A stretch of DNA of 64,000 nt from positions 1,120,001-1,184,000 of the forward strand of contig JBLWTJ010000001.1 in assembly GCA_048270185.1 (NCBI GenBank), given 5' to 3'. Of the stretch, positions 56,319 through 64,000 are shown piece by piece. Below the pieces are notes generated by a model. That model did no database searches and was not told the DNA's origin. It worked only from the letters and a program-made list of their open reading frames with translations. A program made the translations under genes and the position numbers. Each line of letters opens with the position of its first letter. Position 1 is the first letter of the stretch. Source of the DNA: Bacteriovoracaceae bacterium. GTDB taxonomy: Bacteria; Bdellovibrionota; Bacteriovoracia; Bacteriovoracales; Bacteriovoracaceae.

Positions 56319-56394
<76 letters not shown>

Positions 56395-56729: not shown

Positions 56730-57230
56730 ATGAAAAAAATTATCGCACTTGCTGCCGCACTACTAAGCGTTTCATCTTTTGCACTTGATGCATCTGATTC
56801 ATGGTCAACAATCAAAGCTGAAGTAGCTGCTGATTACGATCTATCTTTTACTGGAACAACTGTATTTGTTGGACGTCCAGTTAGCGCATTTGACGTTTGT
56901 CTTGATGGTGATCAATTCGTTACAACTAGAGAATTCCCAATTTACGAAATCGTATTTGTTGGTAGAAATCACTCAGAAGCTGACGAAGATGGTTATGCTT
57001 CAGTAATCGTTGGATACGAAATCCTTTCTTTCCCAACTACTTATACTTCATACAAAGAAGTATGTAAGAACGATGACAAAAACTGTAAGAGAGTTGCTTA
57101 CACTGTTAACCAAGATCTTGTTAAGAACGTTTCTGTAAAAGAAGTTGTTAGAAGAAATGTTGGTAAGAACGATCGTACAATCGAGAGAACACTATTTAAG
57201 AAATCTTTCGAAATCCCAGCTTGTAACTAA
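56730..57230 (+). CDS. Secreted 4-Cys beta-rich protein A1 (unknown family, 4 paralogues here)
   Basis: GGAGG RBS; signal peptide; WSTI, FDVC, LSFP, CxxxxxxC, IPACN. Confidence 0.85.
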   Translation: MKKIIALAAALLSVSSFALDASDSWSTIKAEVAADYDLSFTGTTVFVGRPVSAFDVCLDGDQFVTTREFPIYEIVFVGRNHSEADEDGYASVIVGYEILSFPTTYTSYKEVCKNDDKNCKRVAYTVNQDLVKNVSVKEVVRRNVGKNDRTIERTLFKKSFEIPACN

Positions 57231-57286
57231 TAAATACAATAGCTTAAGCGTTATCCCTAAGGCGCTTAAGCTATATATTTTATAGC

Positions 57287-58114
57287 ATGACTAGATTCAC
57301 GAACCTATTCATGCTATTTCAACAGCTTATGATAAAAGAAAACTCACCAAATACGGCCCTACAAAAAATGGGACTTATCGAGCAAGTCAGCTATGACCTG
57401 GATAAGAAGTTGCGCGAGTTTAAGAATGTAAAAATTGGAGTTAGGCTAATTTCGGAAAAGTCAGGAGTTAGTGAGAGAACGATCTATCGCCTACTGGCCA
57501 AAGAAAACAAACCAACTTATCAAACTCTTTATAAACTCTATCGAATTATTTTCAATACAAGCAATGAATCACTACTTCTAACCCTTGTCCCAGATGTTAT
57601 TCGTGAAGAGATTAAAAAGTGTAATCCAAATGTCATCTCCCAACAAATTCAATACCACGAAGAAGTTGAAGCACAGATGGCCTATGATCGCACTTTTGCA
57701 GAAATTTACATTATGGCAGCATGTGCACCGATAACAACAGAGCTTATTCAGTACCGCTACGGTATGAGTGGAATGTTAACTGTTGAGAAGATGCTGGAAA
57801 TGAAGACCCTTGCCCAGACAAAATCTGGTACTTATATCCTTGGTGAAAACCAAGCTAATTTTAGTGCTAAAACACTAAAGCGATTAGGTCTTTCTCTAAC
57901 AGAGAAATACTGTAAACCACAGAACGCAGAAAGCTTTGGTGAGAATATCATCTCATTCTTTGCTGATGGATTAAGTGAAGAAGCCTATGACAAATGGCTT
58001 GAAATTGATGCAAGAGCATTTCAAGAAAAAGTTGCTATTGCTAACTTAGAAAAATCAAAAGGAACAAAGAGAGCTTTTACTTTTAATGTAACAGACTCTT
58101 TAAGTGAGAAATAA
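57287..58114 (+). CDS. XRE-HTH transcriptional regulator R1 (possibly TIGR02147/DUF4423-related)
   Basis: ISEKSGVSERTIYRLL....PTYQTL HTH; paralogue of 59588-60385; start uncertain (57287/57311/57329). Confidence 0.7.
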   Translation: MTRFTNLFMLFQQLMIKENSPNTALQKMGLIEQVSYDLDKKLREFKNVKIGVRLISEKSGVSERTIYRLLAKENKPTYQTLYKLYRIIFNTSNESLLLTLVPDVIREEIKKCNPNVISQQIQYHEEVEAQMAYDRTFAEIYIMAACAPITTELIQYRYGMSGMLTVEKMLEMKTLAQTKSGTYILGENQANFSAKTLKRLGLSLTEKYCKPQNAESFGENIISFFADGLSEEAYDKWLEIDARAFQEKVAIANLEKSKGTKRAFTFNVTDSLSEK

Positions 58115-58115
58115 G

Positions 58116-58670
58116 ATGAAATTATTACTACTACTTCTATTATCAATATCAATCTTTGCAACAGGAGGAGTTGGTGGTACTTCAGGTGGCCCAAAACCGA
58201 AGAAAGATGATTTTGAAAAAATTGGACCAAAGACACCTTGGAGTGAAATCCAAGATATCGCAAAGATTAATAAAGAAGTTAAAATCGCTCATACAGCGAT
58301 CTTCGTTAGTCGTCCACTAAATGTCTTTGATGTATGTGTTGATGGTGACGAGTTTAGATCTGTAGCAAAAGTTCCAAAATACAAGAGAATGCTTGTTGGT
58401 AAAACTCATTTCGGAACTGATGAAGATGGCTACAAAGACGTTAAAATTGGAAATGAGTTTCTACGCTTCCCTATTAACTACACTAAGTATGAAACAAAGT
58501 GTGAGAATGACAATAGAAGATGCCGTCGCGTTAAAGTTGAAGTTAACCGTGAAACGATTAAAGAACTAGAGATTAAAAAAGTTAAGACTTATAAGCCAAA
58601 TAGTGACAATCCTAGAGAAGTCGTTCTCGATAAGAAGAGAAAGGATTACGTTATCCCATACTGTAATTAA
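58116..58670 (+). CDS. Secreted 4-Cys protein B1 (paralogue of A with Gly-rich N-terminal extension)
   Basis: ATG 1 nt after the R1 stop; signal peptide, TGGVGGTSGG, FDVC, IPYCN. Confidence 0.85.
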   Translation: MKLLLLLLLSISIFATGGVGGTSGGPKPKKDDFEKIGPKTPWSEIQDIAKINKEVKIAHTAIFVSRPLNVFDVCVDGDEFRSVAKVPKYKRMLVGKTHFGTDEDGYKDVKIGNEFLRFPINYTKYETKCENDNRRCRRVKVEVNRETIKELEIKKVKTYKPNSDNPREVVLDKKRKDYVIPYCN

Positions 58671-58696
58671 GAATTAGATTTCATATAAAATACTTT

Positions 58697-58723
58697 AGGC
58701 CACTCGAAAGAGTGGCCTTTTTT
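58697..58723 (+). terminator. Intrinsic terminator ending module 1
   Basis: aggccactc-gaaa-gagtggcct plus T run. Confidence 0.9.
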
Positions 58724-58928
58724 GACTTAAACTCCATGAAATTTACTGTATTTTGTCCATTTGTCATATTTGACCGATCAAACTTGGACAATGTCTGGCA
58801 AAAAACAAGTTCATCTCCACAAAAATTGTCACATTATTTTCGAGGCCATAATTTCTCCCCATAGCAAAAACTGAATAACAAATTTGTTTTAAAAACAAAT
58901 CATATCAACAAACAATTCGGAGGAATTT

Positions 58929-59423
58929 ATGAAAAAAATTATCGCTCTTGCAGCTGCAATCCTAAGTGTATCAACTTTCGCAATCGACGCTTCTGACTCA
59001 TGGTCAACAATCAGAGAAGAAGTTAAGGCTAGCCACAACCTAGTAATGTCTTCTGGATACACAGTATTTATGGGTACTACAAGAACTACTGCTTTCAACG
59101 TATGTGTAAACGGTGAAAACTTCAATACAACTACTGAATTCCCAATCTACGAATACGTAAGAGTTGGTGGTGGTAAAGATGGTGACAACTTCAAAAAAGT
59201 TATCGTTGGTTACGAAATCCTTTCTTTCCCAATCGTACGTGAAGTTACTAAGACAATTTGTTACGGTAAGAACGACAACAGATGTAAAACTGTAACTGAA
59301 ATCGAAGAGCAATCAACTGTAAAAGATATCACAATCTCTAAAATCGTAAGACGTGGTGGAGACCGTGATGACAAGCTAGTTAAGCTTTTCACAAAATCAT
59401 ACGTAATCCCAGCTTGTAACTAA
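58929..59423 (+). CDS. Secreted 4-Cys protein A2
   Basis: Same RBS/start context as A1 (cggaggaatttatgaaaaaaattatcgc); FNVC, VIVGYEILSFP, IPACN. Confidence 0.85.
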   Translation: MKKIIALAAAILSVSTFAIDASDSWSTIREEVKASHNLVMSSGYTVFMGTTRTTAFNVCVNGENFNTTTEFPIYEYVRVGGGKDGDNFKKVIVGYEILSFPIVREVTKTICYGKNDNRCKTVTEIEEQSTVKDITISKIVRRGGDRDDKLVKLFTKSYVIPACN

Positions 59424-59587
59424 GATACTCGCTCGGATCACTTGTAAGCGTCTTATCCCTAAGAGGCGCTTACTTTACCGATATAACAATGGCCAAGGAT
59501 TCCCTACCTTGGCCTTTGTAATTTTTACTACTTACATGAATTAACCCCTTAAAAATGATAATATTGGCCAAATTGAGATGAGGCATA

Positions 59588-60385
59588 ATGAGAGAAGAGA
59601 TTTCTAATACAATCAGTGACTTAGATACTGCCAGGCCAGTTGGTCTTAAGGCACAGGTTGCTAATGATATTAGAGAGCATCTGGCTCAATTTCGAAATGA
59701 ATCAATTGGATTAAGAAAGCTCGCTGAAAAATCAGGAATCCATCAAAGAACTCTTAAGCGTCTAATCGCTCAAGAAAACCGTCCTGGTTATCAAACGTTA
59801 GTTCGTCTCTATACCTGCCTAGTCGAATCATCAAATGGTGGTTTACTTCTAAAGAATCTTCCTGAAAAAGTCGCAAACGAAATACAAAAGAAATCTCCAA
59901 TATCAACTGAAGGTAGTCTTAAGTATAGTGAAGAGGCCAATTCAGAAATGTTCTACGACAAGGTCTTTTCAGAAATCTATTGCCTAGCTTCAATGTCTCC
60001 TATTACAAGTGAATATATTCAATACCGTTATGGGATGAGTGGAGTTGAAACAGCAGATAAGATGCATGATCTTGGAGTCTTAAAACTTACAAAGAATAAA
60101 TCATATACGACGGGTGATATTCAAATTGAATTCTCTCCAAAGCTTGTCAAAAGACTAGGACTTAACCTCGTGGAGAAATATTCAAAAACTGAAGATGTCG
60201 ATTTAGCAGAAAAGAACTTAATTGCTTTCTATGCTGAAGGACTAAGCCCAGAAGGTTACAGAGAATGGCTTAAGATTGACCAACAGGCATTCTACAAAAA
60301 GATCGAAGTAACAAAAAAAGAAGGCATGTTAGGAAATATTAAAACATTTACTTTCATGGCCACAGACACAATGAAAAAAGACTAA
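59588..60385 (+). CDS. XRE-HTH transcriptional regulator R2
   Basis: LAEKSGIHQRTLKRLI..ENRPGYQTL; shares IQYRYGMSG, KRLGL.L.EKY and EGLS.E.Y..WL.ID with R1. Confidence 0.75.
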   Translation: MREEISNTISDLDTARPVGLKAQVANDIREHLAQFRNESIGLRKLAEKSGIHQRTLKRLIAQENRPGYQTLVRLYTCLVESSNGGLLLKNLPEKVANEIQKKSPISTEGSLKYSEEANSEMFYDKVFSEIYCLASMSPITSEYIQYRYGMSGVETADKMHDLGVLKLTKNKSYTTGDIQIEFSPKLVKRLGLNLVEKYSKTEDVDLAEKNLIAFYAEGLSPEGYREWLKIDQQAFYKKIEVTKKEGMLGNIKTFTFMATDTMKKD

Positions 60386-60402
60386 GAGAAAAAGGATATA
60401 AA

Positions 60403-61002
60403 ATGAAATTATTAATTAAAATTCTTATTCTTTCTCTTTCATTAAATGTCTTTGCAGGAACAGGTGGGATTAGCTCGCTATTTGGTTTCGGAGATAAAGA
60501 TGGAAAAGGAAAGAATGGAAGAGTAGATGCTGGTACAGGCGGTATCGTTGGCGGTGTCGATGAGCTAAAAGATCTTCAGCATAAAGACTGGAGTACAATT
60601 AGAGAAGCCGTTAAACAAGACTACAAGCTTGACCTTCAGGGGGATATTGCTTTTGTTGGGAAAATTGTCTCAGTTTTTGATGTTTGTATCAATAATGATA
60701 AAGTTCAAACAATCTCAAAACATCCAGTATATAAGCGAGTACGCTTAGCTGGAAACAGAGATAATGATCGTTATAAAGATGTTGTGATCGGACATAAGAG
60801 ATTGTCTTTCCCACTAACGAGAGAAGTAAAAAAACAAATTTGTTTTGGAAAGAGAGATAATAATTGTCGCGAGTACACTGAAGTTGAAAACTTTTCGCAG
60901 ACAAAGAAAATCACTCTACGTGTCGAGAAAAAGCATAGTAGAGAAAATATCGAATATAAGGATGTTTTCACAAAGCCTTATGACGTACCTTACTGCCAAT
61001 AA
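60403..61002 (+). CDS. Secreted 4-Cys protein B2
   Basis: AAGGA RBS; signal peptide; AGTGG repeats; FDVC, LSFP, VPYCQ. Confidence 0.85.
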   Translation: MKLLIKILILSLSLNVFAGTGGISSLFGFGDKDGKGKNGRVDAGTGGIVGGVDELKDLQHKDWSTIREAVKQDYKLDLQGDIAFVGKIVSVFDVCINNDKVQTISKHPVYKRVRLAGNRDNDRYKDVVIGHKRLSFPLTREVKKQICFGKRDNNCREYTEVENFSQTKKITLRVEKKHSRENIEYKDVFTKPYDVPYCQ

Positions 61003-61021
61003 TCAAAAATAAGTGAAAGAC

Positions 61022-64000
61022 CTAGGCTTCTACGCCTAGGTCTCTTTCATTACTCTTTATTTCTAATTTAATTGAATTACTTGAAATTTTGAAACGAACA
61101 CCATGTTCGAAGCGCCCCTTAACATTATCTCTTAAAAGATCCTTTGTTAGCTCTTCTTCACATCTTAGAGTTCCACTTGCAGTGATACCTATTGAACGAT
61201 TTGGATTTGTATAGATTTTAACAAAATCAATTTTAGAAAGGACAAACGGCAATGATTCGATATAAGACTTGATTCCATCAAAATGGCGGCCTTTAACAAT
61301 CGTCTCTATTGTTGAGTCATCAAGGAATAAACTGGCATCAAATTCAATTTTCGAAAGAGCTACCTCGAGAGTATCTTTCATACTTCTTAAACTTTGTTTC
61401 GCTTCGCGATTTAGTTGTAGTTCCTTTTCCTTTTTCTTTCCTTTAAGGCTTCTTGACTGCTCTCTTAATAGCTCTAGAGATTCAATAATAGTCTTTGACT
61501 TCACTGTCTCTTGGTGAATATTAAGATTTAAACTTTCACACTCTGAGCGCAAGTCACGAATTTCTAAAGAAATTCCTTCTAATAGCTTACGACTATTACG
61601 ATTGGTATCATGGGCATCCTCAAGACTAGCAATAAGCTCATCTTTCTTCAGAAGAAGCTCTCCCTTTACTTTCACCGCTTCATCAATACTTTCTTTTAAA
61701 GTTATTCTCTCTTGAGTTGATTTATCTAATTTTTCTTCGAGATCATCAACTAGAGCTGATGCCTTATTTACTTCATTACGACGGGCCTTATATTCTTTTT
61801 CAACAATGGCCTTTTCATCAAGTTCAATCTTTAAAAGTTCTAGTTTCTCACTATGTAGTTGGTTTACTTGTGCCAGCTCAGAGTTACTTCTTTCAATTTC
61901 TTTACCTAGATGAATAATTTCACCTTTAGCATTTCTCGTATCTTGTTCAAGCTTTTTAATTTCTTCACTCAATTGAACTTTTCTAACGAGATTGGACTCG
62001 AGATTATCTTCTATTTCATTAATCTCAGCCTCAAGATTCGCCATTGAAGATCTAAGTTTATAACAGCTATTTTCTATTTTTGTTAACTCTTCATTACTAA
62101 CAATATTCTTATTCTGAAGCTCCTTACTCTTAATTAGTAACTCGGCTTTCTTATTTGTAAGCTCTGTATGCTTTTGATTCTGAGTTTCGATTGTAAAGAC
62201 GATATTTTCAATACTCTTTTCTGAATCGTTTATAAGACTATTAAGTACTTCTAATTCTGTTTGTATAAGTTTGTGTTGATCTTCATTTTCAGAAACTTTT
62301 AAATTCAGGGCTACAATACGATCATCAAGATTCTTCTTAGATAGAAGTCTAGCATCATATTTCTTATTCTTATTTGATACTTCTGAACGAATCCCCTCTA
62401 ATTGGTCTTCAAGGTTTGAAGCAATTTTAGCTTTCTTAGAAATAAGCTTATCAAGTCTCTTATTATTATTTTCAAGAGATGCCAGTTCAACTTCTTTCTT
62501 TGTAATACCATCTTTTAAAGTTACGATAATATTTTCAGATTCTTCAATTACTTCTAAGTTCTTAGCATGAAGTTGTGTATTTTTATTGATCTCATTATTT
62601 AACTGATCAATTTTACTCTCATACATTGAAATCTTATCTTCAATCGTTTCTAGCTTTGCGATAGTCGAATTAAGCTTGTCGCATAATTTATCGGCAATTG
62701 AAGAAAGACGATTATTTTCAGTCGCCAACTCCTCAACGGCAATTGCTTTTGCTTCAATTCGATTATTACCTATCTCAATTCGCCCCTTCAGGCTTCCAAG
62801 AGTTAAAAGTAATTCATTATTTGTATTATTTAATTTTTGTTCATCTTCTGATAATAGGCCTTGAAGAACATCTTGAGCTTCAACCTCTTCCAGTAATGCT
62901 TCTTTTGCTCTTGTCGATTTCTCCACCTTTAAGTTTAATAGATCGATACTCTTTCTAAGTCCTGAAATCGTAGTTTCAAGAGATAGCTTTTGAGTAGTAA
63001 GACGATTCTTTTCAAGCTCTAGGTTAATGATAGACTCACGAGCTTCAACCTCACTACCCTTTAACTCATTTAAAAGATGACGATGGTCGATCATTTCATT
63101 TGTAGCATTCTTAATCTGTTCTTCAAGACTTAGAATTTTCTTTTTGCGATTTGCATTATTAAATAGAGCTTTTGATTCTTTTGCCTTCAGCTCTTTAAGA
63201 CTCAAGTTAACTCTTTCAAATTCTTTATTTAACTCAGCAACACGATTATCTAATCTTATGCTTTCCGAAAGAACAGCTTCATATTCTTTCTTTGACTTCT
63301 TATAGTCACGATCAACTTGATCAATCTCGATAAGAGAAGATCCTTCTCTCGTTCTTAGTTCATCAAGCTTCTGCTTAGTTTCAACAATTGCCTTCTGAGT
63401 TTCAACAATCTTATCTTGGTATTTTTTGGTTTCATTAGCTAGAATCTTTAGATCTTCTACTAACTCTACTCTTTTCTTCTCTTTCTTCGTTAAATCTCTT
63501 TCTAAATCTTTTAAAGTTTCAAGTTCAACCTTCTCTGTTGTTTTAGTTGAACTCATCTCTGTCTCTATTGATTTAATTTCCGAATTTAGACGAGTAATTG
63601 ATTGTTGAATCTTTTCTTGGTTCGAATTGATCTCTCTAATATTTTCAATTCTAATAACGATTTCTTTTTCAGCTTCAAGCTTTTGCTCCATCAGGTTTGC
63701 TTGCTCAAGCCTTCCCTCTTCAAGCTTTGTTAATGCCTGCTCTCTATTGACCTTGAGTTTTTCACTCTTATCAAGTAAGTGTGAAACTTCCTTATTTAGC
63801 TTGATTCTTTCACCATCGAGAATTTCAATCGATTTATCACACTTGAGAATTTCTTCATTATCAAGTTTAATTTGTGCTTCAAATTTCTTAATTCTCTTCT
63901 TCGTTTCTTCTATTTGAGATTTAAGTCCACTATGAACATCTGTATTGCTAACACGATTACCACTTAGAACGTCAGTTTTACTCTTAAGAGTACTCTCTTG
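61022..64000 (-). CDS. Very long coiled-coil protein (partial; start beyond right edge, >=992 aa)
   Basis: Frame stays open from 63691 to 64000; continuous heptad E/K/L/I pattern with a small globular C-terminus. Confidence 0.8.
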   Translation of the reverse strand, partial: QESTLKSKTDVLSGNRVSNTDVHSGLKSQIEETKKRIKKFEAQIKLDNEEILKCDKSIEILDGERIKLNKEVSHLLDKSEKLKVNREQALTKLEEGRLEQANLMEQKLEAEKEIVIRIENIREINSNQEKIQQSITRLNSEIKSIETEMSSTKTTEKVELETLKDLERDLTKKEKKRVELVEDLKILANETKKYQDKIVETQKAIVETKQKLDELRTREGSSLIEIDQVDRDYKKSKKEYEAVLSESIRLDNRVAELNKEFERVNLSLKELKAKESKALFNNANRKKKILSLEEQIKNATNEMIDHRHLLNELKGSEVEARESIINLELEKNRLTTQKLSLETTISGLRKSIDLLNLKVEKSTRAKEALLEEVEAQDVLQGLLSEDEQKLNNTNNELLLTLGSLKGRIEIGNNRIEAKAIAVEELATENNRLSSIADKLCDKLNSTIAKLETIEDKISMYESKIDQLNNEINKNTQLHAKNLEVIEESENIIVTLKDGITKKEVELASLENNNKRLDKLISKKAKIASNLEDQLEGIRSEVSNKNKKYDARLLSKKNLDDRIVALNLKVSENEDQHKLIQTELEVLNSLINDSEKSIENIVFTIETQNQKHTELTNKKAELLIKSKELQNKNIVSNEELTKIENSCYKLRSSMANLEAEINEIEDNLESNLVRKVQLSEEIKKLEQDTRNAKGEIIHLGKEIERSNSELAQVNQLHSEKLELLKIELDEKAIVEKEYKARRNEVNKASALVDDLEEKLDKSTQERITLKESIDEAVKVKGELLLKKDELIASLEDAHDTNRNSRKLLEGISLEIRDLRSECESLNLNIHQETVKSKTIIESLELLREQSRSLKGKKKEKELQLNREAKQSLRSMKDTLEVALSKIEFDASLFLDDSTIETIVKGRHFDGIKSYIESLPFVLSKIDFVKIYTNPNRSIGITASGTLRCEEELTKDLLRDNVKGRFEHGVRFKISSNSIKLEIKSNERDLGVEA

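Follow-up and report, generated by a model that had tools for sequence, protein, structure and literature searches.

We analysed a 64,000-nucleotide stretch of the genome of a Bacteriovoracaceae bacterium (assembly GCA_048270185.1, contig JBLWTJ010000001.1, positions 1,120,001 to 1,184,000; hereafter the window, with coordinates counted from its first nucleotide). The open reading frame (ORF) list of its plus strand includes six genes arranged as two tandem three-gene modules, A1-R1-B1 followed by A2-R2-B2, each with two related secreted proteins, A and B, encoded on either side of a gene for a helix-turn-helix (HTH) protein, R. In the first module, A1 (56730..57230) is a protein of 166 aa with a plain signal peptide, four conserved cysteines and the C-terminal end PACN; R1 (57287..58114; 275 aa) is a cytoplasmic HTH protein; and B1 (58104..58670; 188 aa), the start of which overlaps the stop of R1 by 11 nt, is likewise secreted and paralogous to A, and has a signal peptide, a Gly-rich GGVGGTSGG leader and the C-terminal end PYCN. 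The second module comprises the secreted A-class protein A2 (58929..59423; 164 aa), the HTH protein R2 (59588..60385; 265 aa; 42-43% identical to R1) and the secreted B-class protein B2 (60403..61002; 199 aa), which has a long Gly-rich leader. All four A and B proteins have an N-terminal signal-peptide-like leader and four invariant cysteines, and the B leaders have in addition a Gly-rich G-x-GG..GG stretch after the signal peptide. The identity of A1 is 55% with A2, 37% with B1 and 34% with B2. These four are the only A or B genes in the genome.

None of the four proteins matched a Pfam family at E<=0.1, matches to NCBIfam were at chance level (E 0.044 and 0.069, far under cut-off), and searches of PADLOC and PHROGs returned no match. 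An AlphaFold model of A1 built with 43 relatives (pLDDT 87.9) consists of one helix followed by an all-beta domain, for which Foldseek found no counterpart in the PDB (best E 0.69), VIA-align against 48,161 chains gave a best Z of 3.5 with no chain at Z>=5, and the ESM Atlas offered no usable match. A limited literature search turned up nothing on the family, which is not to claim that it is absent from print. Two segments of A1 are predicted to be beta-hairpin tips. Loop 1 (residues 77-89, VGRNHSEADEDGY; 56958..56996) lies between strands 69-76 and 89-97 of the model, and loop 2 (residues 105-119, YTSYKEVC-x6-C; 57042..57086) lies in the hairpin between strands 104-113 and 117-127, where it would be bridged by C112 and C119. 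By alignment, and likewise on the plus strand, the corresponding loops are residues 98-110 (VGKTHFGTDEDGY; 58395..58433) and 126-140 (YTKYETKC-x6-C; 58479..58523) of B1; residues 79-88 (VGGGKDGDNF, three residues shorter than the module 1 loop; 59163..59192) and 104-119 (REVTKTIC-x7-C; 59238..59285) of A2; and residues 115-124 (LAGNRDNDRY; 60745..60774) and 140-155 (REVKKQIC-x7-C; 60820..60867) of B2. The second-module motifs read VRVGGGKDGDNF and REVTKTICYGKNDNRC in A2, and VRLAGNRDNDRY and REVKKQICFGKRDNNC (C-x7-C) in B2.

A preliminary description of this DNA had proposed that the loops group the four proteins by module, whereas class-specific residues group A1 with A2 and B1 with B2. Every motif on which it relied is present: EFPIYE, VIVGYEILSFP and PACN in A1 and A2, and P.YKR, YKDV.IG and PYC in B1 and B2. 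Over the loop extents used there, A1 and B1 are identical at 15/28 positions and A2 and B2 at 14/26 (54%), against 14-28% for any other pairing (A1-A2 7/29, B1-B2 4/29, cross pairs 7-8/29). In the rest of the mature domain, A1 and A2 share 56/116 residues, A1 and B1 38/115, A2 and B2 42/115, and the cross pairs 34-37 of 114-117, whereas B1 and B2 share 36/115, no better than the A-B pairs. The grouping by class thus holds here for the A proteins and hardly for the B proteins. Class likeness of the mature domain is essentially between A1 and A2, whereas the B class rests on its Gly-rich leader, the P-Y-C ending and a handful of motifs. Strict 2:2 site patterns in the six genomes with two modules, summed over related genomes so that the counts are not independent, supported class, module and cross groupings at 1, 35 and 1 loop sites, respectively, and at 34, 27 and 3 sites in the rest. 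We rejected an alignment artefact as the source of the loop signal, because the indels and motifs can be seen directly when the four sequences are aligned, and recur throughout the set of 44.

At E<=1e-10, the A-R-B module occurs in 14 of the 237 genomes of the taxonomic family, within 5 of its 69 genera, in the arrangements XRX, XRXXRX or XXRXXRX. Eight genomes have one module, two (including that of the window) have two, and four have two modules and a front gene, A0. The latter is an extra A2-type gene upstream of A1, without an R or B of its own, in four related genomes (L035:2203-2694; L037, L038, L039). It is identical or nearly so to A2 of the same genome, the two proteins being identical in G004, which points to either ongoing homogenisation of A0 and A2 or repeated duplication. 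The related loci come from organisms named Halobacteriovorax, Bacteriovorax and Halobacteriovoraceae. When 1.84 billion representative proteins were searched with a profile, 74 proved related at E<=0.001, of which 17 reached E<=1e-30; their names at source were "hypothetical protein" or "helix-turn-helix". A metagenome scan added only three loci, of the G005 type. In the searches made, the module was found only in Bdellovibrionota.

Distant modules of the same architecture occur in other genera and families (L073; L071; L055, Pseudobdellovibrionaceae; L060, Bdellovibrio-like). There, too, A has a plain leader and PAC, versus a G-x-GG..GG leader and PYC in B. The Bdellovibrio-like A' scores 163 against A1 versus 83 against B1. 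Of the L073 proteins, A' scores 64 with A1 and 32 with B1, B' scores 59 with B1 and 29 with A1, and A' and B' score 255 with each other. Because of these scores, we place both the class and the module signals at great depth and regard the A/B split as ancient. The Pseudobdellovibrionaceae module (L055:2485-4091) encodes much smaller A' and B' proteins, both with DCNGGETGTECR.

The mosaic of class and module likeness is general, extending well beyond the window. In sliding windows of 12 columns over 20 modules, same-module A-B identity was 0.54-0.59 at loop 1, versus 0.26-0.30 for other-module pairs, and 0.49-0.55 versus 0.32-0.39 at loop 2; elsewhere the gap was 0.03-0.10. Among representatives of eight module lineages, loop identity was 0.533 for cognate and 0.355 for non-cognate pairs, a difference reached in 2/40320 permutations, and the cognate B was the best match in 7/8. 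A second set of representatives gave 3/40320 permutations for the loops and 9/40320 for the core. When loop extents taken from the window alone were applied out of sample to six module lineages outside the window genome, cognate and non-cognate identities were 0.605 and 0.416 in the loops (3/720 permutations) and 0.405 and 0.311 in the rest (3/720); without G062, they were 0.626 and 0.465 in the loops and 0.360 and 0.317 in the rest (each 3/120). The appearance of a match through variability alone was rejected by stratifying columns by variability, again without G062: for loop columns, the three strata of highest variability had a cognate excess of +0.19 to +0.20, versus +0.01 to +0.06 for core columns.

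Loop length follows the same rule. Loop 1 is equally long in A and B in 19/20 modules, with lengths of 13, 15, 18, 19 and 20 residues, as is loop 2 in 19/20 modules, with lengths of 15, 16 and 17; in G034, both A and B have a two-residue insertion in loop 2. With five loop-1 lengths across lineages there are more than two loop types, where two specificity types had originally been proposed. In several lineages loop 1 contains NDGDRDGY, HDGDRDGY or EADEDGY, which is reminiscent of the acidic D-x-D-x-D-G ligand pattern of calcium-binding loops.

Separate trees of core and loops, suggested by the preliminary description as a way of checking the mosaic, bore out its loop component but were not cleanly opposed. 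In the loop tree of 44 sequences, A2, A0 and B2 form one clade (support 100/100, branch length 1.14), and for the six double-module genomes the loop data reject both the class topology (p of the approximately unbiased test, p-AU, 0.043) and the cross topology (0.031). The core data reject neither (p 0.377 and 0.207). In the 44-sequence core tree, A1, A2, B1 and B2 are separate clades, B orthologues are joined across genera (90/92, 95/86), and G062 alone pairs its own A with its own B. The core data do not reject the A2+A0+B2 clade (p 0.40), and for the six genomes the core tree is itself the module tree; we therefore dropped the core tree as a clean class signal. The leader and C-terminus are class-specific and the loops module-specific, and the remainder is mixed.

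The two modules of the window do not appear to be recent copies of one another. R2 lies on a branch of length 0.98 outside a clade of R1 and the R proteins of other genera, and R1 is 42-44% identical to R2 proteins and 44-65% identical to the R proteins of single-module genomes, all but that of G115 (44%) being at or above 48%. A clade of R1 and R2 was rejected (p-AU 0.004), as was one of all R proteins of the genus (0.002), in tests that involve long branches and groups named after the tree had been seen. Thus, a recent tandem copy of module 1 was rejected as the origin of module 2, and the R data place two deep lineages side by side rather than a fresh duplication.

If recent gene conversion kept the loops matched, a version of the mechanism that the preliminary description had allowed, the match should also be visible in the DNA. 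Codon identity at identical residues of cognate A-B pairs was 0.458 in the loops and 0.474 in the core, with non-cognate baselines of 0.463 and 0.502. By the Nei-Gojobori method, the proportion of synonymous differences (pS) in cognate loops was 0.83, which is saturated (0.81 and 0.88 in modules 1 and 2 of the window), and that of nonsynonymous differences (pN) was 0.29, as compared with 0.70 and 0.41 in the rest of the cognate pairs and 0.69 and 0.41 in non-cognate loops. In G005, nine of the ten identical loop residues D-NDGDRDGYT use different codons in A and B, and in G034 the two genes encode a shared serine by TCA and AGC, respectively. We looked for A-B conversion tracts in 20 modules by a maximal-segment test with codon shuffling. 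None was significant in 18 of them, including modules 1 (p 0.263) and 2 (p 0.514) of the window; G015 was marginal (p 0.03), and G062 has a tract of 179 nt with 140 matches (p<0.001) that spans loop 1. Among the distant modules, A' and B' of L055 share a patch of 32 nt with 28 matches (p 0.007), and those of L073 and L071 have no tract. With pS saturated, pN low, codon identity at baseline and no tract in either window module, recent conversion is not what keeps the loops of the window alike; protein-level selection is.

Conversion does act elsewhere in the locus. A tract at the 5' end of A1 and A2 was found in all six double-module genomes (all p<=0.007), covering 92-94 of 96 nt in three, 220 nt in one, 72 of 78 nt in another and, in the window, 95 nt with 78 matches (p 0.007). 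A second patch of 35 nt with 33 matches lies over VIVGYEILSFP (p 0.012 in the window genome, G000, and 0.007 in its nearest relative, G002). Its A1 side, SVIVGYEILSFPT (57000..57038), is directly 3' of loop 1, which shows only 33-53% DNA identity between A1 and A2 in these two genomes. No B1-B2 tract was found in any of the six genomes. The likeness of A1 and A2 in class residues is present as described, but part of it, namely that in the signal peptide and VIVGYEILSFP, is due to recent conversion between the two. Within the genus, B orthologues have a codon identity of 0.56-0.57 at identical residues, which is the saturated baseline, whereas A orthologues at the same loci reach 0.78-0.81. This suggests that the A genes may be constrained or homogenised at the DNA level, e.g. 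by strong codon bias or between-species exchange.

From these comparisons we consider it moderately probable that the hairpin tips are a lineage-specific surface kept the same by selection in both paralogues of a module. A and B are ancient paralogues, encoded in the order A, a secreted beta protein; R, an HTH regulator; and B, with its Gly-rich leader and putatively R-coupled translation. Within each module lineage the tips of loops 1 and 2 have the same length and a similar sequence in A and B while differing between lineages. In the window it is the proteins alone that match, and in the scheme that we propose this match is maintained by purifying selection that favours one loop type in both. 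The origin of each loop type was probably either a rare A-B conversion, which is seen directly in one other genome, or parallel change; rare conversion may have seeded the loop types, which would be a cheap explanation of the shared loop indels. The two tips would then form a recognition surface that has to be the same in the A and B of a module, either because both bind the same lineage-specific partner or because they pair pseudo-symmetrically, and tandem modules would represent two functional types. The step from a matched surface to specificity is an inference.

Several observations weigh against this interpretation. The cognate excess is not confined to the loops: in the core of the eight lineages it was 0.390 versus 0.318 (53/40320 permutations), or 0.355 versus 0.320 (53/5040) without G062, and the best core tree of the six double-module genomes is the module tree (96/100), so that the module signal extends beyond the loops. 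The loops of G115 are unmatched (cognate 0.37, others up to 0.50). In module 1 the species differ in their B1 loops but not in their A1 loops, and there is no fine-scale tracking. The loop tree does not unite A1 with B1 to the exclusion of others but places both with loops of other genera, and A1 loops are as close to B of G005 (0.44) as to B1 (0.45), which makes the module 1 loops indistinguishable from retained ancestral ones; the motifs shared by A1 and B1 are close to the ancestral state of the family and not a derived signature of module 1. The wider loop columns used for the sliding windows, the eight-lineage test, the stratification, the loop tree and codon identity were set after the alignment had been seen, and the comparable module lineages number eight and are related to each other. 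Finally, old conversion is indistinguishable from parallel selection at saturated synonymous sites, the codon identity of B orthologues being at baseline even within the genus.

Direct cognate pairing was the title claim of the preliminary description: A and B of one module would bind each other via their hairpin tips, and the loops would co-evolve. Such a pseudo-symmetric interface would suit the hairpin lengths, matched in 19/20 modules for each loop, and A and B are indeed encoded together in most modules. However, the matched residues are identical rather than complementary, and gene content departs from pairing in several ways. Modules L054, L069 and L072 consist of R and B only; the Bdellovibrio-like module (L060:832-2387) keeps A'-R', followed by a 40-residue ORF that has a leader and a Gly-rich stretch before its stop, with no B domain downstream in any frame; four genomes have the extra A2-type gene and no extra B; and the stem-loop 3' of A means that A may be expressed apart from R-B. 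An obligate 1:1 A:B pair is thus unlikely given the R-B-only modules, the B remnant, A0 and the identity of the matched residues, and a direct heterodimer in general seems possible but rather unlikely. Complex prediction for the mature A1 and B1 proteins, run with alignments, scored 0.00, which is evidence neither for nor against A:B binding. An external or periplasmic partner shared by A and B fits the facts of loops and gene content at least as well as direct pairing.

Neutral concerted evolution, in which episodic A-B conversion over the central domain leaves the loops merely as the most changeable sites, with no role in specificity, would account for the tracts in G062 (which covers loop 1) and L055 and for the significant same-module excess in the core, and copying is a cheaper source of five or six parallel length changes than twin indels. 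It does not explain why the excess at equal column variability falls so largely in the loops, nor the combination of high pS and low pN in cognate loops, which indicates that selection went on preserving their likeness long after any copying had taken place. Moreover, the A1-A2 patch of G000 and G002 abuts loop 1 and yet the loop stays module-specific. We therefore think an entirely neutral origin of the match unlikely. We find it very unlikely that only module 2 is special, with the A1/B1 loops ancestral, a single shift in all three module 2 genes and no general pairing rule: although the sole strong mixed A and B loop branch within the genus is that of type 2, the A1 row shows no cognate preference (0.45 versus 0.44) and R2 and B2 are on long branches, cognate preference is found outside the window genome in G034 (0.65 versus <=0.51), G005 (0.59 versus 0.49), G025 (0.59 versus 0.51) and G015 (0.57 versus 0.52), the permutation test holds without the window genome and also without G062, and the loop 2 insertion of G034 is present in both A and B.

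Around the modules, a tRNA-Val(TAC) gene (56319..56394, plus strand; ARAGORN) lies just upstream of the cluster, and the same tRNA is directly 5' of the double cluster in the window and the five other double-module genomes. Another module adjoins two tRNA-Ser genes (L047:4125-4358) and yet another a tRNA-Leu gene (L054:2379-2465), whereas two congeners have their single module away from any tRNA gene; A-R-B modules may reside on mobile or hot-spot DNA. A terminator scan, which found 15 terminator-like sites versus 3.0 expected, placed a stem-loop 3' of each A gene and a terminator-like hairpin 3' of each B gene, listed here for the plus strand: a 14-bp, terminator- or attenuator-like stem-loop between A1 and R1 (57239..57274), a stem-loop with a T-run 3' of B1 (58697..58718), a stem-loop between A2 and R2 (59491..59514) and a bidirectional terminator-like stem-loop 3' of B2 (61018..61043). 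With these stem-loops in between, A may be transcribed apart from the overlapping R-B pair, or transcription may be attenuated before R-B. The ORF list shows no processing or import genes in the cluster. On the minus strand, convergent on B2, a coiled-coil-like ORF rich in E, K and L (61022-64000; at least 992 aa) continues past the end of the window.

The R proteins resemble XRE-family regulators in part. HTH_3 is matched by residues ~40-85 of both R1 (E 0.0034) and R2 (E 0.00047), although at 17.8 and 20.6 bits these matches are under the Pfam gathering cut-off of 23, and both proteins match phage repressor PHROGs (E 0.0003-0.009). The model of R1 (pLDDT 71) gave weak matches to XRE and MarR-like folds (best E 0.017). 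Its HTH region resembles XRE domains in predicted fold (Foldseek probability 0.98-1.00), and matches to the HTH domains of SinR, DdrO, lambda cI and HigA had probabilities of 0.92-1.00, but E values of 0.09-0.3; the other ~180 residues are assigned to no family. We rejected a type II antitoxin of the HigA or dnstrm_HI1420 kind, since PF21716 (19.7 and 15.6 bits, cut-off 27) and TIGR02684 (15, cut-off 53.7) fall short and the neighbours of R are signal-peptide proteins rather than cytoplasmic toxins. The window genome has a distant third R-like gene elsewhere (G000:C3:56517-57227; E 1.7e-7), and at other loci of several relatives there are additional R-like genes with B-like genes downstream.

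In RRNPP cassettes, a cytoplasmic XRE-HTH receptor is encoded beside the gene of its secreted signal, and such cassettes come in specificity types. The A-R-B module is similar in that an XRE-like HTH gene adjoins genes for secreted products and divergence between module lineages has affected the whole set of genes jointly; the R model also matches ComR weakly in Foldseek (E 0.089, TMq 0.20, and E 0.24). It differs in that A and B, with 164-199 aa and a confidently modelled globular beta fold of the disulphide type, are not short propeptides, and in that neither R1 nor R2 matches a TPR family by Pfam or fold search. Conversion between paralogues and concerted evolution are general processes in bacteria, to which the A1-A2 5' tracts (78-100% over ~96 nt), the near-identity of A0 and A2 and the A-B tract of G062 conform, whereas loop matching in the window has left no trace at the DNA level. 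Outside bacteria, the mouse Abpa-Abpbg modules are tandemly duplicated genes for paired subunits, the products of which are described as dimers (PMC4274081, PMC8525912). As in that account, A-R-B modules are repeated, each encodes two related secreted proteins, and the modules have diverged; unlike the mouse system, with its known dimers, they are bacterial, encode only putative partners and have a regulator gene between the paralogues, and A and B show no sequence or fold relation to the mouse family.

The A/B family is unnamed and lacks a Pfam model, its predicted fold had no clear match in the PDB searches, and it was seen only in predatory Bdellovibrionota (74 relatives among the 1.84 billion representative proteins). 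Its two short tips, which selection appears to keep alike in two ancient paralogues as the remaining sequence drifts, are candidate specificity determinants. The locus also allows the matching of paralogous proteins to be cleanly told apart from gene conversion, which acts elsewhere in it. It is conceivable, though we think quite unlikely, that A-R-B is a polymorphic recognition system of predatory Bdellovibrionota, in which identical tips on a free A and on a B with a Gly linker, two forms of a new secreted fold, would set the specificity type (e.g. for prey surface, kin or signal), R would diverge alongside, and tandem deep lineages would give two specificities. The window is DNA of a marine predatory bacterium, and its matched loops point to distinct recognition types; if the loops do set such types, they would open a new way into the question of what these predators recognise outside the cell, and how.

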